Below, piece after piece: positions 5,102 through 29,246 of a stretch of DNA of 29,248 nt. Within the stretch, counting starts at the first letter, position 1; every line of letters starts with the position of its first letter. The DNA lies in contig CAZFEA010000001.1 of the NCBI GenBank assembly GCA_964518085.1, forward strand, positions 1 to 29,248, written 5' to 3'. Under the pieces are notes generated by a model, which was given only the letters and a program-made list of their open reading frames with translations, ran no database searches and had not been told where the DNA came from. A program made the position numbers and the translations under genes. Origin of the DNA: an uncultured Dehalococcoidia bacterium (GTDB lineage Bacteria > Chloroflexota > Dehalococcoidia > JACQUA01).

Positions 5102-7258
5102 CTACGGGACCGGTATCAGTTCGGTATCCAGCAAAATACCGCACGATGGGCAGCAGGTCTGTTCCAGCAAGAAATAACCGGTCAGGTCCGCCATGAGCGC
5201 TCCGGCTTCAGTAGGGGGCAGGAGTTTCACGGTACATGCTTCCTTCCATTTTCTTGGCTCGCTGGAAAGCACGGCCAGGCACCGCTGGCAACGTATGGCC
5301 GAACGGTTCCGGTTAACTATGATCTCCATGTTTCCCCGAAACGGGCGGGTCTTTTCCGTTGTGGGGCGCCTGCCATGGCCGACGGCGCCGCTTTGGGATG
5401 CTCGCGCCGGCTTGAGGCGCGTTGCTGGCCGGCCGTTGAGACGCTGGCGGATAAGGGCCGTCCGTAAGTGGCGCGTGTCATCAAGATTCAATTTGCCTCG
5501 ATCAACGACTACGCCGTAGTACTGTTCGGCCGCCGCGGAGGAAACAAGTCCATTCCTCAGATCTTGCACTACGATCTGCGGGTCCCTTTCCAGGGGGTCC
5601 CCGTAACCGCCTCCGCAGGCCATCCTGAGATAAAGGACATCGTTGACCTGCAGATCGATGTCCTGGTAGGCCAGAGCCATTTTTCTTCCCTTGAGTTCAG
5701 CAAGGTCAACCGGAGGGCGGTTTTGGGCGAAAAACGCCTCCAGCTTCGTACTTTCAAACAAGTTGAGAAGACTGGGCGCTCCGGGGTAACCGCCGAAAAG
5801 ACCCTTCCCCGAGTTCTTCAGCCCGGCCACTCCGAGGGCAACTACCTTGATTTTTCCTTCCGCGGGCTTATAGGGGGCAAGGGCTACCTCGGTCCCTGCG
5901 CCGCCCCGGTACTTTCCGGCGCCGGCGCCATCCACAATATGCCGTCGGAAAAGGTAGATGACGGGGAAGTTGAGCTCAACCCACTCCACGTTGTGGCATG
6001 TCATCCCGATGCTGCCGGCGCTGGACGAGTTCATACCATCCTTACAGGATGTTGCCCCGCTGCCTCCTGATTCCAGCAAGGTGGAGACGTAATATTTTCC
6101 GTACTGGCTGATGCCGGCGTGCCTGGCGAAGCGGCCCATCAAGGTCGGCGCCATGACCTCGCGTTTCCACTTTTCGCTTGCCGCCACTGCCTGCATCAGT
6201 ACCGAAGCGGCAAGGTGTTTGACGGCCTGGGCGCCGGAGGTGGTGTTCAGGGATACCGGGGCCGGGTTCTGGACATTGACCACGCACCCTTCAGGTGCGC
6301 TCACCTCCATCGGGCCGAAGGCGCCCTGGTTGCGCGGGATGTCATAGGCGAAAGTGCACAGGACTTCCTGGAAGCAACAACCGAAGGTGGCATGATAGGG
6401 CAGGTTGATGCCTTTTTCGGCCTGCCTGTCCGTCCCGGCAAAATCGAAAATCAGCCGGTCGCCTTTCTTGTTCAACGTCAGCTTTACCTTCCAGGATTTG
6501 TCGGCCTGGATGGACAGAGAATCAGTCCACGAACCGTCGGGAATTTCAGCTATCCTCTTCCGTAAGATAGATTCCGAATAGCGGATCATCTGGGCCGAAA
6601 CGGCCTGGATCAGTTCCAGCCCGTACTGCTTGATCATATCCTGCATTCTGGCCTTGGCGACGTTGTTGGCCGCAATTTCACATTTCAGGTCCAGGCCCAC
6701 CATCACCGGTTGCCGGGTCATGTTGACCACTGTCCTGAAAACGTCGTTTCGCGTCTGCCCCCGCTCGACCAGCTTGATCCCCGGGATCCTGATACCCTCG
6801 TGGCATATTTCGGTTGCCCCGGGGGAGTTCCCTCCGGGTGACATGGCACCAATGTCCATTACATGGACAAATGTGGCGCTCCAGCCGACGAGGCGGCCTT
6901 GGTAGTGAATCGGGGATACGACATACATGTCTGACTGGTGAATCGCGGCCAGATAGGGGTCATTCAGCAAGAACATGTCGTCGGGATAAATGTTGCCGTC
7001 CTTTCCGAACTGGTCGATAATCTTCTTCACGGCAAACCCGGCGCAAACGGCGTGCATTCCCATCATCGCCTGGCCCACCGATAGCACCTCGCCGGAAGGT
7101 GTGTACAGCGCCGCCAGGTAGTCTTTGAGCTGCGTGGTATTAACCGTGCCCCCCACGTGTTCCAGGGTAATAGCAATTTCCTTGGTGATCTGGTAGAGGC
7201 GATGAGACAGTATTTCAAAAGTAATGGGATCGACAGTTGACACCGGCGGCGCCTTCAT
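5102..7258 (-). CDS. Hydantoinase B/oxoprolinase/acetone-carboxylase-alpha family subunit fused to an acetone-carboxylase-gamma-like Cys4 domain
   Basis: DPITFEI, NDPYLAAIHQSD, HVMDIG, EGIRIP, GAGKYRGG, GGGYGDPLERD; C-terminal CQRC...WK...CCPSCGILLDTE. RBS AGGAG overlaps the upstream TAG. Confidence 0.88.
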   Translation of the reverse strand: MKAPPVSTVDPITFEILSHRLYQITKEIAITLEHVGGTVNTTQLKDYLAALYTPSGEVLSVGQAMMGMHAVCAGFAVKKIIDQFGKDGNIYPDDMFLLNDPYLAAIHQSDMYVVSPIHYQGRLVGWSATFVHVMDIGAMSPGGNSPGATEICHEGIRIPGIKLVERGQTRNDVFRTVVNMTRQPVMVGLDLKCEIAANNVAKARMQDMIKQYGLELIQAVSAQMIRYSESILRKRIAEIPDGSWTDSLSIQADKSWKVKLTLNKKGDRLIFDFAGTDRQAEKGINLPYHATFGCCFQEVLCTFAYDIPRNQGAFGPMEVSAPEGCVVNVQNPAPVSLNTTSGAQAVKHLAASVLMQAVAASEKWKREVMAPTLMGRFARHAGISQYGKYYVSTLLESGGSGATSCKDGMNSSSAGSIGMTCHNVEWVELNFPVIYLFRRHIVDGAGAGKYRGGAGTEVALAPYKPAEGKIKVVALGVAGLKNSGKGLFGGYPGAPSLLNLFESTKLEAFFAQNRPPVDLAELKGRKMALAYQDIDLQVNDVLYLRMACGGGYGDPLERDPQIVVQDLRNGLVSSAAAEQYYGVVVDRGKLNLDDTRHLRTALIRQRLNGRPATRLKPARASQSGAVGHGRRPTTEKTRPFRGNMEIIVNRNRSAIRCQRCLAVLSSEPRKWKEACTVKLLPPTEAGALMADLTGYFLLEQTCCPSCGILLDTELIPVP

Positions 7259-7267
7259 GACTATCTC

Positions 7268-9370
7268 CTACGACCGCAGAAAGATGACGATATTGCGAAA
7301 TTCATCCATGGTTGCTCGTGTGCCGGGGTTTACCACGACCGTGGTTACGGGTGTCTCGATTATGGCCGGGCCGGGCGCTTCGAATCCGGGTTGCATTCGT
7401 TCGAAATCGTAAATGTCTGTCGGTATAAACCCCCGGTGTTCTTCGAAGTATACCTCTCTACTGCCTTTTCGCGACCGTTCAGCCGGCGCCTTCTTGATGG
7501 CTTCTCTCTTGATATTGGGTTTTCTCAGGCGACCGATGGCGTCAATACGGAAGGTGGTGATCTCTTTTCCTGCCTCGGCATAGCCCGACCCTTTGCCATA
7601 GGACTTTTCATACAGTTCATCGAACAGAGAGTACAGCTTCTCCATGTCCCCCGGACTAATATCAGTCATTCCCGCCGGAAAGGGCACGTTCAACTCGTGG
7701 ACCTGGAACCGGTATCTCATATCTACGCTGCGAACGATTTCGATATCGTCGTTTCCAAACCCCGCGGCATGGAGTTGCTCCAGCGCCTGTGCGCACAGGC
7801 TGGAGAAGTTGGCATTGACGCGGTCAACATCTACCGGGACCATCAGCCTGTCTGACCTGGCAAATTGATGGACTACGTCGGAACTTATCAGCCCCATCGC
7901 CCCCTGGACGGAGGCGGTCATGGGGACGACGATCTTTTTGATCCCGAGTTCCGCCGCGAACCTTCCGGCGTGCACCGGTCCGGCGCCGCCGTAAGCAAAA
8001 AGGGCGAAGTTCCGCGGATCGTTGCCTCTCTCGACCGTGGCGCGGCGCACGAGATCACACATATGAGCATTGGCTATGCGAAAGATGCCGTTGGCGGCCT
8101 CAGTTTCGCCCAGGTTCAGCGGGTGGGCAATCTTCTCTCTAATGGCTTGCAGCGCTGCCTGTTTGTCCAGCCTCATTCGTCCACCCAGGAAATAGTCCTC
8201 GTTGAGATAACCCAGCACCAGGTCGGCGTCAGAGACGGTGGGTTCCGTCCCTCCCATCCCGTAGCAGACCGGTCCCGGTTTCGCCCCGGCGCCTTGAGGT
8301 CCCACTTTCAGCAAGCCTGTCTCGGAATCGATCCAGGCGATGCTTCCCCCGCCGGCTCCAATCGATTCGATCCATATTTTCGGCGACAAAATGTTATAGC
8401 GCAGGATAACCGGTGCATATTCCCTTTCGCACGTGCCATCCCGGATTATGCCAACCTTGAAGGTAGTGCCACCCATATCCGTAGCCAGGATGTTGCGTTC
8501 GCCGCTCAGGTCACCAAGGAACTTGCTGCCCAGCACTCCGGCGGCGGGCCCGGACTCAATGGTACCGATGGCGTTCCGGCTGGTCGCCCGCATGCTCAGG
8601 ACGCCGCCGTAGGCCTGCATTACCATAGGTTCTTCCCGCAACCCCCTGGAGTGCAACGCTTTCAAAAGGTCCTGAAGGTAAGAAGAAATTTCGGGGCCGA
8701 TATAGGCGCTGAAAATGGTGGTGGCAGTGCGCTCATATTCGCCAAGGAGAGGGGCCACCTCGCTCGAAATGGCTACATGCACCGATGGGTGATTCGCTTT
8801 CAGTATGCCGGCCAGCGCCTTTTCGTGGCGGTCATTGGCGAGGGACCATAGGAGGCAGATGGCGACCGAGTCCACCCCCTTTTCGATTAACTCTTTGACA
8901 ACCCGGGCAGCATCCGCCGTGTCGAGGCTAATCAGGACGTCACCCTTGTAGTCGATACGCTCATTCACTTCTGTGATGAGAGGCCTGGTAACCAGGGGTT
9001 CTGGCTTGGTAAGGGCTGACAGGTGAGACGCCTCGGTTTCCGTCAGTCCTTCGGTCACCTTGCTTCGCATTATGAGGATGGTGTCCGCGAAGCCCCTGGT
9101 GGTTATAAGGCCGGTCCTGGCCCCGGAACGCGTTATGAGGATGTTTTCTCCCACCGTGCAGGCATGGAAAAAGTACTTTGTCCGCCGGATGAGCTCATCT
9201 TCGCTGGCCAAACCAAGTTTTTCTGACAGGTCGCGAACCGAGTCGATGACGCCGATAGAGAAGTCGCCGGGCGTGGACAATGCTTTTCCCAGGGACAACC
9301 GGCCGTGTTCATCGACTCCTACACAGTCGGTAAATGTCCCGCCAATGTCCACCCCTATTATGTATTCCAT
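7268..9370 (-). CDS. Hydantoinase A/oxoprolinase (ATP-binding, acetone-carboxylase-beta family) subunit
   Basis: IGVDIGGTFTD, SGPAAG, DMGGTTF, IGAGGGSIAW, GPVCYGMGGTEPTVSDA, GGAGPVH, DMRY. Confidence 0.92.
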   Translation of the reverse strand: MEYIIGVDIGGTFTDCVGVDEHGRLSLGKALSTPGDFSIGVIDSVRDLSEKLGLASEDELIRRTKYFFHACTVGENILITRSGARTGLITTRGFADTILIMRSKVTEGLTETEASHLSALTKPEPLVTRPLITEVNERIDYKGDVLISLDTADAARVVKELIEKGVDSVAICLLWSLANDRHEKALAGILKANHPSVHVAISSEVAPLLGEYERTATTIFSAYIGPEISSYLQDLLKALHSRGLREEPMVMQAYGGVLSMRATSRNAIGTIESGPAAGVLGSKFLGDLSGERNILATDMGGTTFKVGIIRDGTCEREYAPVILRYNILSPKIWIESIGAGGGSIAWIDSETGLLKVGPQGAGAKPGPVCYGMGGTEPTVSDADLVLGYLNEDYFLGGRMRLDKQAALQAIREKIAHPLNLGETEAANGIFRIANAHMCDLVRRATVERGNDPRNFALFAYGGAGPVHAGRFAAELGIKKIVVPMTASVQGAMGLISSDVVHQFARSDRLMVPVDVDRVNANFSSLCAQALEQLHAAGFGNDDIEIVRSVDMRYRFQVHELNVPFPAGMTDISPGDMEKLYSLFDELYEKSYGKGSGYAEAGKEITTFRIDAIGRLRKPNIKREAIKKAPAERSRKGSREVYFEEHRGFIPTDIYDFERMQPGFEAPGPAIIETPVTTVVVNPGTRATMDEFRNIVIFLRS

Positions 9371-9400: not shown

Positions 9401-10570
9401 TTACTTTTGCATCACCGGCCTGAATATTTCTTTAGCTAGCTGGATCAGCTTGGGTCTCTCGATCATTTGCTCTTCACTGTCAGTCGATATCAGTTTGGCC
9501 CCTTCCTGGGGCACGTATGCCGGATCGATTCCTGAAGTGTCTACGTCGGCCCGGGCGCTGGGAGGTCCGTAGTTCTTCTGAAACAGGGCTTGCGTGTCTT
9601 TAGTCAGTAGCCAGTTGACGAACACTATGGCCGCATTGGGGTTGGCAGGCCGGTCGATGAGGGATACCACGCCGCCGCTGTAGGTCAAGCCAATTCCCTC
9701 ATGGGCGGCCTTCCATTTTATGGGAGCCCCGGCCCTCTTGAACTCGTCGAAGGTCTGGACATCCGGAGCAATAGACAAGGGGTATTTGTTTCTGGCCAGC
9801 CACTCAACCTGCTGGCGCTTGTCGGCGATCAGTAGCGGCTCTTGCTTTACAAACTGCTGCAGGTAGTCTTTGCCTCCATCTTGACCAAAAATGGCAAACA
9901 TCAACGCCACCCAATAGCTACCTCCCCCCGATATGGTTGGGTCCATTGTGGTTATCTTGCCTTTCCACTTGGGGTCGAGGAGGTCGCGGTAAGACTTAAT
10001 TTCGGCTTCCTGGACCGCGTCGGAATTCGCAGCCAGAAAACTGGCAGTCCGATGAACGAATGCCAGGGACAGTCCTGTTTGATCGACCAAGGGGAGTTCC
10101 TTGCCGCGCCATTTGGTAGCATCGGTAACCTCCGGCAAGATCAGGGCAGGCTTCAACGGTTGTAACACGCCCTGTGGCTTCATGATCAGCAGCAGTGTCG
10201 AAGTTCCCGCGATCACGGCATCAGCCAGGTATAGCCCGGCCCTTCTTTCGGCCTGGATGCGGGCCATGGACTCCTCACCTCTGCCAACGATAAAATCGAT
10301 ATTGATGCCGAACTGTTGCCTGAACGCTTCTTTTAGAGCCTGAGTGGTCGCCGGGTTGGCCGAGGTGTGGACCACCACCGTACCTTCGGTCCTGGCTTTG
10401 GCGACGGTGCTGTCCCACCGGGCTTGCCACGAGGATTTTTCCGGGCCGGTTTGCGCCGCCGTGGTTGGTTTGGTTGGACCAGGCGACAAAGGAGCCGCCG
10501 GCCCCCCACAGGCAACAGCTATGGTGAGAAGAATACCGGCAAAAGGCAATAATAGATGACTGGCTTTCAT
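9401..10570 (-). CDS. Extracellular solute-binding lipoprotein (Fe3+/thiamine/polyamine-type, COG1840-like), no cognate permease nearby
   Basis: Signal peptide with lipobox IAVAC, Pro/Thr-rich linker, WKGKITTMDP, NPNAAIVFVNWLLTKDTQ. ATGA overlap with the upstream gene. Confidence 0.85.
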   Translation of the reverse strand: MKASHLLLPFAGILLTIAVACGGPAAPLSPGPTKPTTAAQTGPEKSSWQARWDSTVAKARTEGTVVVHTSANPATTQALKEAFRQQFGINIDFIVGRGEESMARIQAERRAGLYLADAVIAGTSTLLLIMKPQGVLQPLKPALILPEVTDATKWRGKELPLVDQTGLSLAFVHRTASFLAANSDAVQEAEIKSYRDLLDPKWKGKITTMDPTISGGGSYWVALMFAIFGQDGGKDYLQQFVKQEPLLIADKRQQVEWLARNKYPLSIAPDVQTFDEFKRAGAPIKWKAAHEGIGLTYSGGVVSLIDRPANPNAAIVFVNWLLTKDTQALFQKNYGPPSARADVDTSGIDPAYVPQEGAKLISTDSEEQMIERPKLIQLAKEIFRPVMQK

Positions 10571-12168
10571 TTGACCTCCATTCTCAATTTGACACAGTCG
10601 ACATTCAAGGGCTTTTCGTCACGGTCCAGTTGTACTCTGGTAGTTTTATAAAACAAAGGGTCTTTGGTCGGGTAGTCTTCACGATAGTGGGGACCCCGGC
10701 TTTCCTTCCGGAATTCAGCGGACCTGAGCAGGGCTTCGGCCAGCAGTAACATGTTCTCCACTTCAATAGCTTCCTTCAAGTCGGGGGTATTATCTGCACT
10801 CAGATTCTTCTTTTCTTCTTTTATCCGCGTCAGCTCATCGATACCGGCGAGCAATGAAGGTCCACTCCTTACCGGGCTCATGCGTTTATTGACCAGCTCG
10901 CGAATCTTCTTTCTTAGCTCCAGCGGCCGCCTTTTTCCGTTCTTCAGCGATATTTCTTGTAGAAACTCCTTTTGCCTGTCAGTCAGCCCGGTTCTCTCTT
11001 GTTCCAACTCCTTGCATGTTTGGGCCGCGTTCTTTCCAGCTTCGATCCCCATGACCAGGCACCTGGTCAAATGGTTTACACTATTCTCCCCGGCGTAGGT
11101 ACCGCTGACCATTTCTCCCGCGGCGAAAAGCCCGCGCAGTTGGGTCTCCCCTGTCTTGTCGGTGGTAACCCCTCCCAGGTATGTGTGCCCGATGGGAATC
11201 ATTTCCACCGGAAATCGCTTCACATCGCGGGGACATTTTGCCAGTTTCATTCTGGTACGAGGGTGCATCTTGGACCAGTCGGCGGACGATATCCCGGTCA
11301 TGTCCAGGAAAACGGGTCCCCCTTCCATCTCCATGATCTTCTCCGACTCTTCAAACTTGAAAGAAGCATAGCGGCATACCTGTTCCCATCTTAGACCTAG
11401 ATACTTTCGCACCAGGTCTTCACCCTTCTTGTTCACCAGACGGACGCCCTTGACCGTTATGATTTCGCTGATTATGTCCCCTTGCCAGGGGAAGGCCACC
11501 CCCACAAAACCGACTTCAAACTGTATGAATTCCATATTGGTTAAGGGTAAGCCTGCTCTCAAAGCCATGGCATATCCGTCGCCGACGAGCGACCTGGGGC
11601 TGGAGGTCTCTTTGAACAGCGATGCCCCTCCGCCCGTCGCCAGAATGGTGCATCCCGCTCTGAGGACCAGGACGTCCCCGTTCTGATCAAGGCCTGCAGC
11701 GCCAATACATTGTCCTTCCCGGACCAGTAAATCTACTATGAGGCAGTTGCCGATGGCGCCAGTCCCCGATTCCTTGAGTTTTTTCCTGAGAGCCTCAACT
11801 ACGGTGACCCCGTCCTCTTCGTCCTCTCTCCTTGGTGTCAAATACCACTCTCCGTAGGCCTCCAGGGGAACGCCGAGGTTTTTGAGCCATAGAATACCCT
11901 CTTTTGCCCGTTCAAGATGCATTTTGACCTGTTGCTCGTCAAAAATGTATCTTTGGGGACTTGAATCGTATCCGGGTAAGTTAAGCTCTTGAGTGGTGTA
12001 TTTGAACCAGGCGCCGGAAAAGTAAGTGGCGCTCTGTTTGCCGATGCCGGCTTTCGATACCAGAAGAACATCACGCCCTTCCTCTCTGGCTCTTATAGCG
12101 GCAGCCAGCCCGGCTATTCCGGAACCGATAACCAGCACGTCCGTGTTTCGTTCTTTGGAATCCAGCAT
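10567..12168 (-). CDS. SdhA/FrdA/NadB-family flavoprotein with a non-canonical active site
   Basis: DVLVIGSGIAG, LATGG, GDGYAMA, NMEFIQF, HTYLGGV, LFAAGE, RKESRGPHYREDYP. ATG12168 preceded by AAGGGA is preferred over the track start at 12210. Confidence 0.85.
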   Translation of the reverse strand: MLDSKERNTDVLVIGSGIAGLAAAIRAREEGRDVLLVSKAGIGKQSATYFSGAWFKYTTQELNLPGYDSSPQRYIFDEQQVKMHLERAKEGILWLKNLGVPLEAYGEWYLTPRREDEEDGVTVVEALRKKLKESGTGAIGNCLIVDLLVREGQCIGAAGLDQNGDVLVLRAGCTILATGGGASLFKETSSPRSLVGDGYAMALRAGLPLTNMEFIQFEVGFVGVAFPWQGDIISEIITVKGVRLVNKKGEDLVRKYLGLRWEQVCRYASFKFEESEKIMEMEGGPVFLDMTGISSADWSKMHPRTRMKLAKCPRDVKRFPVEMIPIGHTYLGGVTTDKTGETQLRGLFAAGEMVSGTYAGENSVNHLTRCLVMGIEAGKNAAQTCKELEQERTGLTDRQKEFLQEISLKNGKRRPLELRKKIRELVNKRMSPVRSGPSLLAGIDELTRIKEEKKNLSADNTPDLKEAIEVENMLLLAEALLRSAEFRKESRGPHYREDYPTKDPLFYKTTRVQLDRDEKPLNVDCVKLRMEVK

Positions 12169-12261
12169 CTGTCTGTTTCCCTTAAAGCAGGTTTGAGAAT
12201 TGTACTGCAATTGCTTATGGAGTGTGACTGTCGGCCAGGATGTTCATGACCTGGTCCGAAC

Positions 12262-18084: not shown

Positions 18085-19220
18085 TCATTTACGCAGGGCG
18101 GAGAAAATCTCGCCTACCCTGTCGCGGATCGCCGCCTGGGTGCGCAGGTAGGCTTCATCGGGAACGCTCGCCCCCGCGGGTGGCAGCACCAGCGGATCGA
18201 AACTGTCGGTGGGAACATCCACTCGCTGCGACGGGAAGCCCTGGGCCGGGGCCCACACCGAGGCGCCTTCCTTGCTCACCAGCCAGTTGACAAAGAGTTT
18301 TACCGCGTTGGGGTGAGGGGCCTTATCGAAAACGAAGAGATTACCGGCGCCCGAAGCCAGGAAAGGCGGCTCCTTCAAAATGGTGAAAGCTATCGGGGCG
18401 CCCAATTTCTTGAACTCGGTGAACATGGCCGAGCTCTGTCCGATGCCTACAGGGTATTTCCCGCGGGCCACCCATTCCAGCATCATGCGCTGGTCCCTGG
18501 TCATGACCGGTTCATTGGCCGCCAACTGGCGCAGTATTTCCAGCGTCCCGTCGACGCCGAAGATTTCCTTGGCCATGAGGGTGATGAAGCTGAGGGATGC
18601 GCCGGGGACGGCCGGGTCCGACAGCACCATCTTGCCCTTCCACTTCGGCCCGACGTAATCCAGGAAGGAGGTTATTTCTCCTTCCCTTATTATGTCGGTG
18701 TTGTGGATAGAGGGCCGGTTGGCCATGGCCACAGTTACCAGGAGATGGCGGTCTTCGTCCAGGTAGGGAATCTTCCCGTTGCGCCACCTGCCCGGGTCGG
18801 TGACCTCGGGCAAGACCAGCAGTTCCGGCAGGGGAACAGTGATCGCCATGGGCTTGATGTCAACAAAAAATGGACCGTTTCCGGTCAGGCCGGCGTCGGC
18901 CCAGTAGAGTCCGGCCCTTCTCTCGGCCTTGATCTTGGCAATGACCTCGGTGGCGCGTCCCTCAGTGGCTTCGATGTCTATGCCGAATTTTGCCTTGAAG
19001 GCCCGCTGGATGGCGGCTTTGGCCGGGCCCCAGTCCGAGCCAACAGGTTCACCGTGCCCTCCTTCTGGGCGGCCTTGACCAGCTCGTCCCACGAGTTGGC
19101 CGGGGGCGCCGGCGCCCTGACCGGCGGCGTGGGGGCGCCCGTGGGCTGGGCCGGCGCCGCGCAGGCGACGATCAGGACCATCAGAAACGCTGCACCAATC
19201 AAACTTGAACACTTTTTCAT
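18085..19220 (-). pseudogene. Solute-binding lipoprotein paralog split by a 1-nt deletion at about 19039-19041
   Basis: ATG19220 (RBS AGGAG) gives MKKCSS...IVAC...QKEGTVNLL in one frame; the homologous remainder SDWGPAKAAIQRAFKAKFGIDIE...FSALRK is in the -1 frame. Junction: GTG AAC CTG TTG GC TCG GAC TGG. Confidence 0.8.
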
Positions 19221-20287: not shown

Positions 20288-20323
20288 CCCCTCACCTTAA
20301 TCCTCTCCCTCAAGGGGAGAGGA
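20288..20323 (-). repeat. REP-like element family 2 (TCCTCTCCCC-TTGA-GGGAGAGGATTAAGGTGAGGGG)
   Basis: Matches 24192-24227 at 34/36 in inverted orientation; contains the TAA stop of the 20297-21997 gene. Confidence 0.85.
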
Positions 20324-21997
20324 AACCGATGTCACGCCATAGATGCTTTTCGCCGCTTCGGCGGTGATGTACCCGTTCTCCAGGTCCGCCAGCACTTTGC
20401 TTCTCCCCCGCTCATGCGGGTCGCCGACTCCGCCGCCGCCGCACAGCTCGAGCCGCAGGATGTCACCCGATTTCAAGATAACATCCCCGACGCGGGCGGG
20501 CAACCGCCGCTCGGTGGGAGAATCCGGGTTAACTATCGCCGCCCCCCTTCTGCCCGCCATGCCTCCCCCGACCCCCCAGGGCTCCATGACAAACTTGTCG
20601 CTCCGGGTGCTCAGCCGGGTCTCTTCGCCAAGCATGAGATATTCCCGGACATAGCCCGGGCCACCCCGGAATTTGCCCGGACCGCCTGAATCGGGAATGA
20701 GGTGAAATTGCAGGAACCTCACCGGGAACTCTGCTTCCAGTATCTCCAGCGGGGCCAGTTTTATCGCCTGGTTGCTGCACCTCAGGCCGGCCCCGAATCC
20801 CCCGTCGTCCCCGTCCACCGCCCCGGCGCCGGAGCGGAGTATTTCGTATTGCACGTAGGACTGCCCCGCTTCGGTCCTGCCGCCCATGGCCATGGTCTGG
20901 CCGCCACCGCTGCAGGCGATGGCTTTTCGTCCGGCCAGTTTGGCCAGGGTGGCCACGACCATTTCGGTGGCCAGTATCAGCGTTTGGGCGTAGCAGTTGA
21001 CCGGCGCCGGAAGGGCAGGGTTGGTAACTGTCTTCTCGCCGCAGTTAACCGCGATGCAGCGGTGCAGCCCGTAGTTATTGGGCAGCCTGGGGTCGACCAT
21101 GGCAATCACGCCGTAGTAGCAGGCCGCCCTCACCAGGGGCGGACGGAGATTCACCGGCCCCTTGCATTGCGGCGCGCTGCCGGAGAAATCGAAAAGGACC
21201 CGGTCTTGTTCCTTGACCACGGAAAGGTGAAGCCTGACCGGCCTTTCCAGGTCAATGCCGTCGTTGTCCAGGAAAGCCTCCATTTCAGCCCGGCCGTCCG
21301 GCCACCGGGCGATCTCGGACCTGACCCTCTTTTCAGTGATGTCGAACAGTTCTTCGAAACAGCCCAGAACCAGTCCCTTGCCGTACTTGTTCATCAGGTT
21401 TTCGACCCGCATCTCCCCCAGGCGGCAGGTGCCTATCTGGCCCTGGATATCGCCCAGCACCACGTCGGGCGTTCTGCTGTTGGCCCTTATGATTGCCTCG
21501 ATTTCTTTCGACAGCTTCTGCCCGCGGGCGCATTTTACCGGTGGAAAGTGAATCCCCTCGTGAAATATTTCCCGCGCCTGGCCGGACCCGCTGCCGGGGA
21601 CCAGTCCGCCCAGGTCGCTCTTATGGGCCATGCTACCGCAAAAACCCACCAGTTCGCTGTCATGGAAGACGGGGGTAATTACCGCCATGTCCATGGCGTG
21701 CGGGCTTCCTCCGAGATAGGGATGGTTTACCAGAAAGGCGTCGCCGGGGGCGATTTCTTCATAGGGATAGCTTTGCAGGAGGGATTCTATGATCGCCGGA
21801 AACGACCCGATATGGAAGTAAATGGTGATGTGCTGGCCAACCAGCCTGCCCTTCCGGTCGAGGATGGCGCAACTGGCGTCTTGAGACTCGCGGATAATAG
21901 TCGAATAGCCGGTCCGGAACAGCGACGTCTCCATCTCCCGGACTATTCCCGAAAGACTGCTGCTTATTACTTCAAGGGTTATGGGGTCAATGGCCAT
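20297..21997 (-). CDS. Hydantoinase B/oxoprolinase family subunit (second paralog, no gamma fusion)
   Basis: DPITLEV, STIIRESQDASCA, NHPYLGGSPHAMD, AHKSDLGG, HEGIHFPPV, GPGKFRGG, GGGGVGDPHER. Confidence 0.92.
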   Translation of the reverse strand: MAIDPITLEVISSSLSGIVREMETSLFRTGYSTIIRESQDASCAILDRKGRLVGQHITIYFHIGSFPAIIESLLQSYPYEEIAPGDAFLVNHPYLGGSPHAMDMAVITPVFHDSELVGFCGSMAHKSDLGGLVPGSGSGQAREIFHEGIHFPPVKCARGQKLSKEIEAIIRANSRTPDVVLGDIQGQIGTCRLGEMRVENLMNKYGKGLVLGCFEELFDITEKRVRSEIARWPDGRAEMEAFLDNDGIDLERPVRLHLSVVKEQDRVLFDFSGSAPQCKGPVNLRPPLVRAACYYGVIAMVDPRLPNNYGLHRCIAVNCGEKTVTNPALPAPVNCYAQTLILATEMVVATLAKLAGRKAIACSGGGQTMAMGGRTEAGQSYVQYEILRSGAGAVDGDDGGFGAGLRCSNQAIKLAPLEILEAEFPVRFLQFHLIPDSGGPGKFRGGPGYVREYLMLGEETRLSTRSDKFVMEPWGVGGGMAGRRGAAIVNPDSPTERRLPARVGDVILKSGDILRLELCGGGGVGDPHERGRSKVLADLENGYITAEAAKSIYGVTSVSSPLEGED

Positions 21998-24077
21998 GCT
22001 TATTCAAATCCGCTTCCTTCACTGTAATGATAATGTTTCCATACCGGTCGACCCGCCCCGACTGGCCGGGACAGATGACCGTGGACGAGTCCATCTGCTC
22101 AATGACACAGGGCCCCGGGATCAGGTGACCGGGCCCCAGCAAATCCCTTTCATAGATAGGACATCCGGCGTCGCCGCCGAACTCGCCGAAGTATAAATGC
22201 CTGTGGCCCTTGACCGCGGCCTCCGGGCCGCGGGCTGCCGGTGAGGATTCTTTGATAGCCAGTTTGGGTACCTTGACCTGCGACACCACGCGGTAGTTGA
22301 CGATGTCCACCGGGGCCGCCTCGGCCTTGTGGCCAAAGAGTTTTTCGTGCATTTCGTCAAACCGTGACCTTATCAACGCCAGGTCCGGCTGCTCAAGATG
22401 TCCGCCCGGTGCGGGTACGATAAGCTCATATCCCTGGCCGGAATAGCGCAGGTCCAGGTAGAACGTCAGATCCACCTCAACCTCGGAGAAGCCCTCATCC
22501 AGCAATTCGCGCACTGCCTGGCTCTTCAGGTCATCGAACTGGGCGTTGACTCCATCAACACGCGTTTTGGCCAGGGACTGGAGTCGTGACCGGGCATAAT
22601 CATGCCTGACGTCCGACATGAGCAGACCCATGGCCGAGGTCAACCCCGGCGCCGGGGGAACGAGGACTGTCGGAATTCCCAGGGCAGCCGCCAGCATGCC
22701 GCCGTGGACCGGCCCGGCGCCGCCAAAGGCCACCAGGGCAAACTGGCGCAGGTCGTAGCCCCTTTCCGAGGAAACCGCCTTTATGGCCTGCTCCATGTTC
22801 ACATTTACGATTCTCAGGATGCCCTCGGCCGCCTTGACTGTGTCGATACCAAGAGGAATCCCGATCTTTTGCCTGATGGCTTCTTCTGCCCGCTGCCTGT
22901 TCAGCTTTATCTTGCCGCCCAGGAAATTTTCGGCATTGAGGTATCCCAGCACCAGGTTGGCATCGGTGACCGTCGGATCGGTCCCGCCCTTGTCATAGCA
23001 GGCCGGGCCGGGGTCGGCGCCGGCGCTTCGCGGCCCCACTTTGGGTACCCCCAGGTTGTCGATCCAGGCGATGCTGCCGCCCCCCGCCCCGATGGTGTTG
23101 ATGTCTATCAGCGGAGTGGCCGCTTCCCATTTCCCGACCTGTCCGGTTGTTACCTGTACCGCTTCGCCGTCTTCCAACAAGGCGATGTCCGAGCTGGTGC
23201 CGCCAACATCGAAAGTGATGGCATTTCGAAAACCCGCCCGCACCGCCAGTTCCCTCCCGGCGATGACCCCCGCTGCCGGTCCCGACAGGATGGCGGGCAC
23301 CGCTTTGGTTGAGGCCATGCCGAAGGTTGACACCCCCCCGTTGCATTGCATTACATAACGTTCGTTGGTGACCACCCCAGCCTGTACCAGCTTCTGCTGT
23401 ATATTGCCCAGGTACCGGGCCAGAACGGGGGCGATGGAAGCGTTCACCAGCGTCGTGGAAAGTCGCAGGTATTCGCGGATTTGGGGGATCACTTCCGTGG
23501 ACAGAGAGACCGATATTGCCGGATATTGCTCCTTGATGATCGCTTTGAGCCGGGTTTCATGCTCCGGGTTCATGAAGGAATGCAACAGGCATACCGCTAT
23601 GGACTCGACATTCCTGTTCACCAGCCGGGCCACGGCCTCCCGGGCCTGTCGCTGGTCGAGAGGGGTCAGTACTTTTCCTCGGAAATCTATCCTCTCATGG
23701 ATATCCTCGCAGAAACGTGGTTCGAGCAGGCCTTTCGGCATCTCGGCATAAAGGTCGTAAAGGCTGGGACCGGTCATGGCCCCCTGGTAGATGTCGTTGA
23801 TCCCGCGAAGGCCCCCGGTCACCAGGGCGCCGACCCTGGCGCCCCTGTCCTGGAGCAGGGCATTGGTGCCCACGGTAGTGCCGTGGGAAAAGAAGGCGAC
23901 ATCCGCCGGTCTCACCTTTTTCTGGAACAACTGCTTCATCCCTGCATCCACTGCTTCCGAGGGGTCCCTGGGCACCGAAGGCACCTTGATGTGAAGTACG
24001 TCGCTCGTCTCCTCGTTGAAGATGACGAAGTCGGTGAAGGTGCCGCCGACATCGACTCCGATTCTGTAGCGTGCTAT
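21987..24077 (-). CDS. Hydantoinase A/oxoprolinase family subunit (second paralog); apparent ATA start codon
   Basis: Frame extends 31 codons upstream of the track's GTG23984 and includes RIGVDVGGTFTD. AGGAG is 7 nt before ATA24077; in-frame TGA at 24095-24093. Motifs HGTTVGTN, SGPAAG, DVGGTS, GAGGGSIAW. Confidence 0.88.
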   Translation of the reverse strand: MARYRIGVDVGGTFTDFVIFNEETSDVLHIKVPSVPRDPSEAVDAGMKQLFQKKVRPADVAFFSHGTTVGTNALLQDRGARVGALVTGGLRGINDIYQGAMTGPSLYDLYAEMPKGLLEPRFCEDIHERIDFRGKVLTPLDQRQAREAVARLVNRNVESIAVCLLHSFMNPEHETRLKAIIKEQYPAISVSLSTEVIPQIREYLRLSTTLVNASIAPVLARYLGNIQQKLVQAGVVTNERYVMQCNGGVSTFGMASTKAVPAILSGPAAGVIAGRELAVRAGFRNAITFDVGGTSSDIALLEDGEAVQVTTGQVGKWEAATPLIDINTIGAGGGSIAWIDNLGVPKVGPRSAGADPGPACYDKGGTDPTVTDANLVLGYLNAENFLGGKIKLNRQRAEEAIRQKIGIPLGIDTVKAAEGILRIVNVNMEQAIKAVSSERGYDLRQFALVAFGGAGPVHGGMLAAALGIPTVLVPPAPGLTSAMGLLMSDVRHDYARSRLQSLAKTRVDGVNAQFDDLKSQAVRELLDEGFSEVEVDLTFYLDLRYSGQGYELIVPAPGGHLEQPDLALIRSRFDEMHEKLFGHKAEAAPVDIVNYRVVSQVKVPKLAIKESSPAARGPEAAVKGHRHLYFGEFGGDAGCPIYERDLLGPGHLIPGPCVIEQMDSSTVICPGQSGRVDRYGNIIITVKEADLNKHGH

Positions 24078-24286: not shown

Positions 24287-24502
24287 ATGGTAACACAGGA
24301 CGCGACTGTTGAAGTATTCTGGCGAGCTTATGAAGCGCTGAAACCGGCGCAAAGGCGAAAGCTGGCGGAACGGATCCTGAGGGACAGCCAACTATTGGAA
24401 GACCTGGGTGACCATCTGCTAATCGAAAGAGCGAAGCGGCTGAAGGGAAAAGCTCTTACTCTTGACGAGTACAGGTCCCAACGCCGTCTTGCAGATGGAT
24501 AG
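24287..24502 (+). CDS. Putative type II antitoxin
   Basis: 71-aa helical protein 2 nt upstream of a RelE-like toxin; C-terminal ...ALTLDEY pattern typical of RelE partners. Confidence 0.65.
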   Translation: MVTQDATVEVFWRAYEALKPAQRRKLAERILRDSQLLEDLGDHLLIERAKRLKGKALTLDEYRSQRRLADG

Positions 24503-24504
24503 CT

Positions 24505-24759
24505 GTGTTTACGGTACTTCTGGAGCCATCCGCCCAGCGTGATCTGAAGAAGCTAAGCAAGTCAACCGGGGATAGAGTGGAGGCCGAACTGGTCAGGCTC
24601 CAAGCAGACCCACGGCATCAAGGCGTGAAAAAGCTAACAGGCTTCGAAAACCAGTGGCGGTCGAGGGTTGGCCAATACCGAATTCTGTACGAAATAGAGG
24701 ACAATGCGTCTAAGGTTCATGTCTACCGGGTAGCCCACCGGAGCGAAGTGTATCGGTAG
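24505..24759 (+). CDS. relE: Type II toxin, RelE/ParE family
   Basis: 84 aa; AQRDLKKL, KKLTG, WRSRVGQYRILYEI, VAHRSEVYR. Confidence 0.88.
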   Translation: MFTVLLEPSAQRDLKKLSKSTGDRVEAELVRLQADPRHQGVKKLTGFENQWRSRVGQYRILYEIEDNASKVHVYRVAHRSEVYR

Positions 24760-26402: not shown

Positions 26403-26735
26403 TCAGTCGGCGCCGGCGGCGAATCTCACCGCCAGGTCTTTGATGAGGGGACGGTTTGGCACCGGCTCGATGCACATCTCTTGTGTCGCCGGGGTGTCAC
26501 AGGCCAGGACCACCTTCTTGTTCACCGAGACGGAGCAGATGGAGCACACGATCTTGCAGCGGCACGACTCGCGAAAGGAAAGACTGCCGTCCAGGTGGCT
26601 GTAGATGTAGCGGATGGTGTCCAGTACGCTGCGGTTTTGCCAGCCCTCGGGTGGGACGACGTATGTCTCATACCTGGGTTCCTTATCAAGTTCCGGGTCA
26701 AAACGACGTATGGTTACCCTGGCCTCAGTTGCCAC
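26403..26735 (-). CDS. SdhB/FrdB N-terminal [2Fe-2S] domain-only protein
   Basis: IRRFDPELDKEPRYETY, SVLDTIRYI, LSFRESCRCKIVCSIC...LAC, IEPV..RPLIKDLAV then stop. GTG start 6 nt after GGAGGA. Confidence 0.85.
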   Translation of the reverse strand: MATEARVTIRRFDPELDKEPRYETYVVPPEGWQNRSVLDTIRYIYSHLDGSLSFRESCRCKIVCSICSVSVNKKVVLACDTPATQEMCIEPVPNRPLIKDLAVRFAAGAD

Positions 26736-28479
26736 GGCTTTCCTCCACTCCTTCTTCCTCCGGCGGCTGCATCCGGTGGGCCACCACGGGGACCTGGCTG
26801 AAAACGGCTTCGCCGTTCACCTTTTTGACGCATATGTTCCTGAGCCACTCCTTGTTGTTAGCCGCGGGGAAATCGGTGCGGTAGTGTGACCTGCGACTCT
26901 CCCTGCGTATCAGGGCGGCCCGGATGGTCAATTCCGCCACGGTTACCATGTTCCGGGCCTCCAGGGCGTCTATCAGGCCCACGTTGAAGCGGCGGGACGC
27001 CCCTGGAACACAGAGGCGGGGCAAGTCGTTCTGCTTGACATCCAGAATTGCTTTCAGCGCTTCTTCGAGGCCGGCCTGGTTCCTCACCAGGCCGCACTTT
27101 TCCCACATGACGTCTTTTACCTTTTCTTTGACGTCGAAGCCGGTAATGCCCTGCCTGCGGGAAAGGAGCGTCTCGATCTGGCGCTGTTCCGCTTCCACCT
27201 GTCCCGTGTCCACCGGTAGCCAGTCCAGGTCTCTAGCCCTGGCGGCGGCGTTCTCGCCCCCGATGAGGCCCATGGTCAGGCACCAGCAGATGGCCGGGCC
27301 GGCGTCTATTCTTTCCGCGCCGTCCATGCCTCCGGCATTCTCCCCGATGGCAACCAGGCGTGGTATGTTGGTATCGCACTCCACGTCTACGCGGATGCCG
27401 CCGATGGTGTAGTGGACCGCCGGGCCGACTTCGAAGGCCTCTTTGGTCAGGTCTATGCCGGCTTTCTTCACCTTGGTCAGGAACCGGGGATTGAAGCCCT
27501 TCACTGTGTTCTCGACCATGTTGAGCGGCAGATGTGAGACCGAGAGGTAGGCCCCCCCCCTGGGGCTGCCCCGGCCGGCCAGGTTTTCCAGGTAGATGGC
27601 CCGGGAGGTAGGGTCGCGCAGGCCCCATGCCTTGCTCGAAGGGAGGTACTTCTCCAGGAACTCTTCGCCATGGGAGTTGAACAGCTTCCCCCGCAGCGCG
27701 TACCGGAGCGAGGCGCAGGAAATCTGCTCGCGGCCGGGTGGGCCGTAGCAGTGATAGGGGAAGCACTGGTGGAACTCCATGTCCATTAGTTCGGCGCCGG
27801 CTTCGTAGGCCAGGGCATAGCCATCCCCGGTAGCGCCGGAGGGCATGTCGGTGCGCCGGAACAACTGGCCGCAGCCACCTGTGGCCAGGATGGTGGTCTT
27901 GCTGCGCAGCACCATGGGCCGGCCGTCGGCAATGGAGACGCCCACCGCCCCCGCCACCTGTCCCCGGGACATGAGCAGCCTGGTGACGAAGAAGTCCTCC
28001 ATGGGCGCGATGCCCCGGCGCTTGAACTCGGCGCGGAAGGCCCTGCGCCACTGGACGCCGCCGCTGATGACCACCAGCGAGCGGGGATAGGTGGATCCCG
28101 GCCCCTGGTGCTGAACGAACCGGCCGTCTCTGGTCCTGGCGAAGGCGGCGCCCCATTGGTTTACCTTGAGTACTTCGCTGCTGGCCAGGTTGACCAGCCG
28201 TTCCAGCAGCTTCTGGTTATTCAGGAAAGCCCCGCCCCGGACAACATCGGAAAAGAACACGTCAGCGTTGTCCCGCGGGTCACCGTGTCCCAGGGGGGCC
28301 TGCACCCCCGCGCCCGCCATGACCGTAGAACCGCTGTAGCCCATGGCGCCTTTGGTTACCACCAGGACGCTGGCTCCCCGGGCATGGGCTTCGATGGCGG
28401 CCTTGGCGCCCGCGGCCTCGGTGCCGATGATAAGCACATCGGCCTTTAATTCAGTTACAGGGTCCAACGAATTCCTCAT
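26725..28479 (-). CDS. SdhA/FrdA-family flavoprotein (second paralog)
   Basis: DVLIIGTEAAG, LATGGCG, TGDGYALA, DMEFHQ, LRDPTSRAI, HYTIGG, GAERI, RRESRRSHYRTDFP. ATGA overlap with the upstream gene. Confidence 0.88.
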   Translation of the reverse strand: MRNSLDPVTELKADVLIIGTEAAGAKAAIEAHARGASVLVVTKGAMGYSGSTVMAGAGVQAPLGHGDPRDNADVFFSDVVRGGAFLNNQKLLERLVNLASSEVLKVNQWGAAFARTRDGRFVQHQGPGSTYPRSLVVISGGVQWRRAFRAEFKRRGIAPMEDFFVTRLLMSRGQVAGAVGVSIADGRPMVLRSKTTILATGGCGQLFRRTDMPSGATGDGYALAYEAGAELMDMEFHQCFPYHCYGPPGREQISCASLRYALRGKLFNSHGEEFLEKYLPSSKAWGLRDPTSRAIYLENLAGRGSPRGGAYLSVSHLPLNMVENTVKGFNPRFLTKVKKAGIDLTKEAFEVGPAVHYTIGGIRVDVECDTNIPRLVAIGENAGGMDGAERIDAGPAICWCLTMGLIGGENAAARARDLDWLPVDTGQVEAEQRQIETLLSRRQGITGFDVKEKVKDVMWEKCGLVRNQAGLEEALKAILDVKQNDLPRLCVPGASRRFNVGLIDALEARNMVTVAELTIRAALIRRESRRSHYRTDFPAANNKEWLRNICVKKVNGEAVFSQVPVVAHRMQPPEEEGVEESRGN

Positions 28480-29246
28480 CTGGCAAGAGACGCGGCAAAG
28501 ATATCCTTGAACCTTCTCAATCTCTCGGACTCTCCCCTCAGGTATTCCTCGGTCCCTGAATTGAAGTACTTCATTCCTTCCCGGCGCAGCACATCGGGGT
28601 CGAGGTGGTCAACGGGAACATCAACCCTGGCGCTCGGATTTCCAAAAGCCCTGGAAATAACCGTTTGCCCTTCCCTGGTGAGCATCCAGTTGACAAAAAG
28701 CCTGGCGGCGCTGGGATGCGGCGCTTTGCTCACCACGGCGAGACCGCCATTGCCTGCTGTTACGTGGGCTCCGTCCGAGGGTGTCAACCATTTGACCGGG
28801 ACCCGTGCCCTCGCCAGTTCGGTGCGAGTGGAGTCATTCATCCCGAGCCCGATGGGGTATTTACCCCGCGCCACCCACTCTCCCAGCAGCCGACGGTCTC
28901 TGGTGACTTCCACCTCTTGTTTTGCCAGGGCGCGAATGTAGTCCGCACCCAGGACTTCCAGGGCAACACCGAGGACCGAGGCGCCTGTGCCGGTCACCGA
29001 GGGGTCGTCCAGGATTATTTTCCCTTTCCAGCGGGGATGCAGGAGGTCCCGCCAACCCGTTATCTCCGTTGGACCGATTATCTCGGTATTGATGGCTATG
29101 GACTTTTGCACCAGGACGATGGAAGAGATGATAGTCCGGTCACTATCCACCCACGGTAATGCTCCTTGCCACCACACATCGGGTTTGAGCACTTCGGGAA
29201 GAATGAGCATTTTGTCCATCGGTTCCAGAAAGCCCGGCGGCTTGAG
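28476..29246 (-). CDS. Solute-binding protein paralog 3; 5' end beyond the window
   Basis: Frame is open to the window edge (LKPPGFLEPMDKMLILPEV); WKGKIILDDP, EWVARGKYP, APHPSAARLFVNWMLTREGQ. Confidence 0.85.
   Translation of the reverse strand, partial: LKPPGFLEPMDKMLILPEVLKPDVWWQGALPWVDSDRTIISSIVLVQKSIAINTEIIGPTEITGWRDLLHPRWKGKIILDDPSVTGTGASVLGVALEVLGADYIRALAKQEVEVTRDRRLLGEWVARGKYPIGLGMNDSTRTELARARVPVKWLTPSDGAHVTAGNGGLAVVSKAPHPSAARLFVNWMLTREGQTVISRAFGNPSARVDVPVDHLDPDVLRREGMKYFNSGTEEYLRGESERLRRFKDIFAASLAR

Follow-up and report, generated by a model that had tools for sequence, protein, structure and literature searches.

A conserved, uncharacterised pairing of an SdhA-like flavoprotein with a shortened SdhB-type iron-sulfur protein in an uncultured Dehalococcoidia bacterium

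Is a flavoprotein of the SdhA/FrdA superfamily that is encoded beside only the N-terminal half of an SdhB subunit the remnant of a succinate dehydrogenase, or is it an enzyme of a different kind? This question is raised by two genes on contig C1 (CAZFEA010000001.1) of an uncultured Dehalococcoidia bacterium, a contig that belongs to a 3.5-Mb metagenome-assembled genome of 517 contigs and was analysed over its entire 29,248 bp (hereafter the window). An earlier reading of the sequence alone (the original prediction) had described these genes as a minimal, soluble two-component oxidoreductase:

26725..28479, minus strand: flavoprotein of the SdhA/FrdA superfamily, 584 amino acids (aa), with Pfam domains PF00890 and PF02910
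26403..26735, minus strand: mini-SdhB, an iron-sulfur (Fe-S) protein of 110 aa with a GTG start and Pfam domain PF13085 only

Comparisons of the two proteins with their homologues place the pair in a conserved, unnamed 'SdhA-like + mini-SdhB' family. The pair is conserved, uncharacterised and mis-annotated in public pipelines, and constitutes a variation on a well-known scaffold. A full-text literature search retrieved no paper describing an SdhA-like + mini-SdhB family.

Conservation of the shortened iron-sulfur partner

The sole Pfam domain of the 110-aa protein is the SdhB N-terminal [2Fe-2S] domain (PF13085, Fer2_3; E=2.7e-19), and the protein stops seven residues past it, aligning with residues 7-105 of Escherichia coli FrdB; it therefore consists of the [2Fe-2S] domain alone, as had been predicted. 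The four cluster ligands (Cys58, Cys64, Cys67 and Cys79) were invariant across 21 homologues, the N-termini of which align from the GTG start residue of the window protein. An additional cysteine (Cys60) is present in the motif SCRCKIVCSIC, as the original prediction had pointed out, but this residue varied among the same 21 homologues. No SdhB C-terminal [4Fe-4S]/[3Fe-4S] domain was found in the 110-aa protein, nor any Fer4_8 domain on the window contig, and an open reading frame (ORF) and Pfam check of the window revealed neither a Fer4 domain nor a membrane anchor downstream of the pair, in agreement with the predicted lack of both. The SdhB-C-type Fer4_8 domain was also not found on any contig of the same genome that carries a pair.

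A scan of metagenomes seeded with family-specific peptides retrieved 80 loci. In all 23 loci that shared at least 49% identity and extended beyond the end of the flavoprotein gene, this gene was followed by an ORF for a Fer2_3-only protein of 104-128 aa, and in the related loci this ORF either overlaps the flavoprotein stop or comes within a few tens of bases of it. The canonical SdhA loci from the same scan (27-31% identity) were all accompanied by an SdhB of 255-312 aa. Homologous loci with a full-length SdhB, which would point to a recent truncation in the window, were looked for, and every readable related locus (29/29) was found to have kept the short partner.

The genome to which the window belongs encodes five further pairs of flavoprotein and short Fe-S protein, located on contigs C33, C68, C323, C380 and C414 (six pairs in total), with identities to the window pair of 62-69% for the flavoprotein and 58-68% for the Fe-S protein. 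One additional pair, on C276, has a partner of approximately 182 aa with Fer2_3 and Fer4 domains, and C216 encodes a canonical SdhA along with a 266-aa SdhB. The search for conserved pairs that the original prediction had proposed was thus productive both within this genome and in the metagenomes.

The window flavoprotein was 47-84% identical to other family members. Judging by their names, close homologues come from Dehalococcoidia/Chloroflexota and from one Hodarchaeota bin. In an even sample of 300 genomes of the phylum, no family member was detected at E<=1e-140 except in the window's own genome, and in a sample of genomes of the class short partners were found in the same genus only. A scan of genome contigs with the single flavoprotein returned just one unrelated archaeal SdhA-like locus. 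Amongst 5.8 billion proteins searched, partners of 94-122 aa formed 35 clusters. The sizes of the 150 best Fe-S representatives from a 1.84-billion library were also tallied: 49 were of 135 aa or fewer, 22 were of 136-210 aa, 42 were SdhB-sized, and 37 were of approximately 510 aa, the last of these having the TfrB architecture (Fer2_3, Fer4_8 and two CCG domains).

Several observations were made on the wider complement of SdhA-like genes. The window's own genome gave 42 matches to PF02910, compared with one or two in most genomes of the class, 35 in a genome of the same genus, 17 in one of the same family and 19 in genome G012; as the own genome has eight full SdhB-type Fer2_3 domains, approximately 34 of its SdhA-like flavoproteins are without an SdhB-type partner. 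A second SdhA-like copy in the window (10567-12210, minus strand) reads QFFP, gives no alignment to the TE..RGEGG block and overlaps a gene for a solute-binding protein (SBP). An SdhA-like paralogue with one in-frame TGA inside the same 559-aa frame was present in two genomes of the genus (G000:C312:1594-1932 and G001:C321:8955-9293), and this codon could be either selenocysteine or a common frame break. At locus L021 (own contig C33, 3219-7189), a second, divergent SdhA-like gene (5495-7189; 27% identical) directly follows the mini-SdhB gene, and at L045/L046 two family flavoproteins stand in tandem before a single mini-SdhB. These arrangements hint that two flavoproteins might share a single Fe-S subunit.

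Fold and active site of the flavoprotein

Both domains of the flavoprotein were recognized with confidence (PF00890, FAD_binding_2, 1.2e-49; PF02910, Succ_DH_flav_C, 1.3e-28), and all curated flavoprotein family models scored far under their cut-offs. The top NCBIfam match was TfrA (386.5 vs 718 bits). Scores were also obtained for the SdhA/FrdA models TIGR01812, TIGR01816 and TIGR01176 (319 vs 567, 248 vs 727 and 227 vs 933 bits, respectively), for NadB (234 vs 453 bits) and for AprA (107 vs 557 bits). An AlphaFold2 model of the protein (mean predicted local distance difference test score, pLDDT, 85.8) superposed over its full length on the flavoproteins of complex II, with template modelling (TM) scores of 0.81-0.86 to SdhA/FrdA chains. 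The nearest solved structure was the SdhA of Mycobacterium smegmatis Sdh1 (7d6v_A; TM 0.85, 32% identity), and AprA structures appeared at ranks 41 and 43 of the fold search. The flavoprotein is without a predicted signal peptide and is not accompanied by a gene for a membrane anchor, hence a cytoplasmic, soluble enzyme is expected.

The family carries a signature of its own, G(S/T)EAAGAKAA, EF(Q/H)QFFP, LRYxL(H/R) and DGAERIDGGPA, in place of the canonical GxGxxG, QFHPT, TEGxRGEGG and HGANRLG, and this signature was constant across 113 flavoprotein clusters. The GTEAAG and QCFP motifs that had been read from the window protein were seen again in the alignments, as was the absence of the histidine that binds flavin adenine dinucleotide (FAD) covalently: the flavinylation column holds serine in the window protein and N, D, S, T or A across the family.

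To map the active-site columns, 36 family members were aligned (L-INS-i) with 30 canonical SdhA proteins from the outgroup loci. The column of the QFHPT substrate histidine is occupied by Phe240 and that of the catalytic arginine by Tyr260, which is invariant in the family and is preceded directly by a nearly invariant Arg259. The Thr-Glu pair corresponds to Ala255-Ser256 in this alignment, whereas a pairwise HMMER alignment instead places it on Cys-Ala; the earlier statement that TE reads CA is therefore reproduced by the pairwise alignment but not by the comparison of the family with canonical proteins. Similarly, the second histidine and second arginine are kept (His356 and Arg390), as had been claimed, but the catalytic arginine, also thought to be retained, is not. 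In fumarate reductases, the retained His/Arg pair clamps the proximal carboxylate of the substrate, and the substrate histidine, the Thr-Glu pair and the catalytic arginine bind the distal carboxylate and deliver a proton.

Judged from these alignments, the substrate pocket has been rebuilt and its new residues are under constraint. The conservation of the altered motifs across the whole family points to a substrate other than succinate and argues against decay, which lends support to the original view of a locus that is designed rather than broken. Distant lineages with either a short Fe-S partner (L052) or one of approximately 185 aa (L049 and C276) were also without the canonical site, and SdhB-sized partners accompany the canonical active site.

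On this evidence, we consider it fairly probable that the pair forms a soluble FAD/[2Fe-2S] heterodimer, which takes as its substrate a carboxylate different from succinate, fumarate and aspartate and passes electrons to a separate partner; here we infer the loading of cofactors, the formation of the complex, the direction of electron flow and the class of substrate. Such an enzyme would amount to a complex-II-like catalytic head reduced to two redox centres, with the 584-aa subunit holding a non-covalently bound FAD and the 110-aa subunit a single [2Fe-2S] cluster. His356 and Arg390 would hold the proximal carboxylate of the substrate, whilst the residues for the distal carboxylate and the proton shuttle would have been swapped (His to Phe240, Thr-Glu to Ala-Ser and the catalytic Arg to Tyr260). 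The enzyme would most likely saturate or desaturate a C-C bond, or act on a C-N bond, beside a carboxylate. The [2Fe-2S] cluster would turn the two-electron chemistry of the flavin into one-electron steps, with electrons being exchanged with a dissociable soluble partner and with no involvement of a quinone site or membrane anchor.

Genomic context and a candidate electron partner

The pair is part of a run of three minus-strand genes, for an SBP, the 584-aa flavoprotein and the 110-aa Fe-S protein, that are linked end to end by overlaps. Two further features belong to this layout:

26741..26746, minus strand: Shine-Dalgarno-like GGAGGA, 5 nt before the GTG of the Fe-S gene and within the 3' part of the flavoprotein gene (sequence reading)
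28476..29246, minus strand: SBP gene, its 5' end lost at the contig end (Pfam SBP_bac_11/6/1)

The flavoprotein gene ends with a TGA at 26727-26725 and overlaps the Fe-S gene by 11 bp, which, in combination with GGAGGA, suggests translational coupling of the Fe-S gene to the flavoprotein gene; the good ribosome binding site and the overlap had both been predicted correctly. At its other end, the flavoprotein ATG overlaps the SBP stop (ATGA), and of the operon genes in view the SBP gene probably comes first. Full-length SBP paralogues carry lipoprotein signal peptides (two members with a lipobox). The Fe-S gene is followed on its 3' side by nothing but a convergent carboxyltransferase gene, and the single terminator-like match of a consensus scan (26246-26228) lies within that gene and was not used.

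The electron partner and further operon genes are out of view in the window, because the contig stops 770 bp upstream. A continuation of the operon was sought, and no linking contig was identified: the sequence at the contig end was unique, and the SBP family gave approximately 197 tblastn matches. The SBPs that lie beside flavoproteins in the window (9401-10570, 18085-19212 and 28476-29246, all on the minus strand) are members of this very large paralogue family, in which the matches, obtained with a 110-residue N-terminal probe across 3.5 Mb, were often situated at contig ends, indicating that assembly breaks fall in the SBP family. The remainder of the contig encodes two hydantoinase/oxoprolinase A+B pairs (5102-9370 and 20297-23984, both on the minus strand), which score like caprolactamase or acetophenone carboxylase, in addition to an amidase, a CoxSML-type molybdoenzyme and a ParE-type toxin pair (24287-24759, plus strand). 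A functional tie between these genes and the pair is not obvious.

To survey the neighbours of the family, the ORFs of 28 loci were clustered and the recurrent clusters annotated. The commonest neighbour, found at 9 of the 28 loci and in both subfamilies, was a protein of approximately 300 aa (cluster c2) with eight invariant cysteines that form two [4Fe-4S] motifs (hereafter the 8-Cys protein). It often occurs in two tandem copies, either before the pair (c2-c2-flavoprotein-FeS at L033, L034, L037 and L039) or after it (flavoprotein-FeS-c2(-c2) at L022, on own contig C68, and at L029 and L031). Those of the window's own genome are as follows:

L022:1862-2749 and L022:956-1858, minus strand: 8-Cys proteins on contig C68, with others on C255, C278 and C182

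The 8-Cys protein gave weak NCBIfam matches, far under the cut-offs, to reductive dehalogenase (RDH) and QueG models. Its structural model (pLDDT 76) matched only the folds of PceA, QueG, NpRdhA and CblC, with a probability of 1.0 and TM scores of approximately 0.5. Most of its 144 database relatives were without a Pfam domain, and the name given to them by the Joint Genome Institute (JGI) is 'epoxyqueuosine reductase'. For at least 12 of these 144 relatives, the longest contig was equal in size to that of a homologue of the pair, one such contig being that of an 86%-identical relative of the window Fe-S protein; these equal contig sizes suggest that the 8-Cys protein and the pair are frequently co-located. 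The compact 8-Cys proteins share with the NpRdhA-type dehalogenases and QueG the RDH/QueG fold and two [4Fe-4S] motifs, a likeness that concerns this recurrent neighbour only, yet they are much shorter, are encoded by a separate gene, score far below the family cut-offs and are absent from the window. According to the models, they may represent a distinct and unstudied branch of the RDH/QueG superfamily.

Other recurrent neighbours were UbiD-type decarboxylases (7 loci), lipoprotein SBPs (7), a CMD/AhpD-family protein (5), TctABC (4), TAXI-TRAP transporters (3) and nitroreductases (3). The UbiD and carboxylate-uptake genes would fit a catabolism of aromatic or unsaturated organic acids, given that the acids on which UbiD enzymes depend are alpha,beta-unsaturated or aromatic.

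For the soluble electron acceptor, which we infer as the original prediction did, a concrete candidate may thus be named, namely the RDH/QueG-fold 8-Cys protein of the nine related loci. The partner would probably be this 2x[4Fe-4S] protein where it is encoded, and otherwise a ferredoxin, such that the term 'two-component' may understate the full system.

Some findings weigh against a soluble, carboxylate-directed FAD/[2Fe-2S] heterodimer of this kind. The second glycine of GxGxxG is replaced by a nearly invariant glutamate (GxExxG, residues 19-24), for which we know of no precedent in the superfamily; that FAD is bound in the usual way is an assumption, made because fold and motifs are otherwise intact. 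The pipelines of JGI label homologues 'fumarate reductase (CoM/CoB) subunit A'. The 8-Cys protein is not adjacent to the pair in the window or in the TRAP-linked loci and is absent from the well-covered loci L021, L036 and L045/L046, and the neighbours differ between loci, so no single substrate can be deduced from them.

The same neighbour allows another interpretation, in which the pair is solely an electron-input or -output module and the catalytic subunit is the RDH/QueG-fold protein, possibly corrinoid-binding, with electrons running from FAD through [2Fe-2S] and 2x[4Fe-4S] to the active site, as in the self-sufficient reductive dehalogenases. In NpRdhA, a flavin/[2Fe-2S] module feeds the dehalogenase. 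The position of the 8-Cys protein directly beside the pair at nine related loci of both subfamilies, often in duplicate, its exclusive match to the PceA, QueG, NpRdhA and CblC folds with the accompanying weak RDH/QueG matches, and the equal-size contigs would all be consistent with such an arrangement. However, a complete capping domain and the conserved carboxylate clamp are present in the flavoprotein, neither of which would be needed for electron entry alone, the fold match is modest and corrinoid binding putative, and the 8-Cys protein is missing from beside the pair at the loci listed above. We therefore regard this interpretation as rather unlikely.

Known systems and remaining alternatives

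The pair shares with the complex II head (SdhA/SdhB and FrdA/FrdB) the four-domain flavoprotein fold, the [2Fe-2S] domain with the same four cysteines and the gene order of flavoprotein followed by Fe-S protein. It differs in being without the [4Fe-4S]/[3Fe-4S] domain, the membrane anchor and the flavinylation histidine, in the replacement of the substrate histidine, Thr-Glu and catalytic arginine, and in its GxExxG dinucleotide motif. The adenylylsulfate reductase AprAB is a soluble alpha-beta heterodimer in which a flavoprotein of the same superfamily is combined with a small Fe-S subunit, from which electrons go to a separate partner. The pair has the same architecture of soluble flavoprotein and small Fe-S subunit, but AprB is of the 2x[4Fe-4S] ferredoxin type, as opposed to the [2Fe-2S] SdhB domain of the pair, and the AprA score is as low as given above. 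Whilst its architecture resembles that of AprAB, the pair is by descent closest to proteins of the TfrAB type and of the actinobacterial Sdh1 type. Overall, the pair is homologous to the complex II head, yet it falls outside SdhA/FrdA, SdhB/FrdB, TfrAB, NadB and AprAB.

An amino-acid or amine dehydrogenase akin to L-aspartate oxidase, oxidizing a C-N bond with the [2Fe-2S] subunit in place of O2 or fumarate as the acceptor, was also considered. NadB models reach approximately 234 bits, and the FAD of NadB is likewise non-covalent; this score is, however, far under the cut-off of 453, and NadB is a stand-alone flavoprotein, unlike that of the pair with its dedicated Fe-S partner. No recurrent RidA, aminotransferase or ammonia-handling neighbour was found in the census, in which UbiD, CMD-family proteins and carboxylate transporters recur instead, and an enzyme of this type appears unlikely.

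A true soluble fumarate reductase or succinate dehydrogenase, TfrA-like and with a smaller Fe-S subunit, would be in keeping with TfrA as the top NCBIfam match, with the JGI names of homologues and with the presence of the ~510-aa TfrB-architecture proteins amongst the nearest longer relatives of the Fe-S domain. TfrAB of methanogens (thiol:fumarate reductase) is, like the pair, soluble and without a quinone site, and TfrA is the best-scoring curated family. Nevertheless, the TfrA score is approximately half the cut-off, and TfrB has Fer4 and two CCG domains that are absent from the pair, the 110-aa protein matching only the N-terminal 97 positions of the TfrB model (63.7 bits vs a cut-off of 385). 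The residues that bind fumarate are lost in the pair's flavoprotein, the substrate histidine, Thr-Glu and catalytic arginine being replaced family-wide, and six copies of the pair in a genome that also encodes a canonical SdhAB are ill-suited to one housekeeping reaction. A bona fide fumarate reductase was rejected on account of the sub-cut-off score and the replaced residues, and we consider it very improbable.

In Euglenozoa, where SdhB is split into SdhB-n and SdhB-c, a separate N-terminal [2Fe-2S] polypeptide with the same domain boundary as that of the pair does exist, but these organisms still produce the C-terminal half and have a normal complex II in the membrane (PMC2663770). Apart from this precedent, only the short length of the Fe-S protein speaks for a recently truncated or decaying SdhAB remnant, or for a split SdhB with its C-terminal half elsewhere, and both were dismissed as highly improbable, the former since the partner is short family-wide, with invariant cluster ligands and altered motifs that are conserved rather than random, and the latter since the C-terminal half was not found next to any pair and pair-bearing contigs are without the SdhB-C-type Fer4_8 domain.

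The soluble FAD/[2Fe-2S] heterodimer remains the preferred reading, and a wider system may be envisaged around it. It is possible, albeit doubtful, that the pair acts together with the RDH/QueG-fold proteins, UbiD and the carboxylate uptake genes that recur at its loci, as a soluble redox system of several components that has so far gone unrecognised in anaerobic Dehalococcoidia and in further uncultured lineages. In such a system, an FAD/[2Fe-2S] head derived from complex II would be connected to a reductase of the corrinoid or Fe-S type, and the reactions would be the (de)saturation and (de)carboxylation of organic acids that are aromatic or unsaturated.

The complex II head has been thought to need three Fe-S clusters for electrons to arrive at its acceptor, and this family presents what would be a head with FAD, one cluster and an altered active site. 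A single small genome has six copies of it, and its protein clusters from metagenomes number considerably more than a hundred. Databases label its flavoprotein 'FAD-binding protein' or, misleadingly, with the fumarate reductase name quoted above. Knowledge of the substrate would correct those reconstructions of subsurface Chloroflexota in which such genes are counted as markers of the tricarboxylic acid cycle or of fumarate respiration, and would extend the range of known flavoenzymes by a new design for the transfer of electrons.

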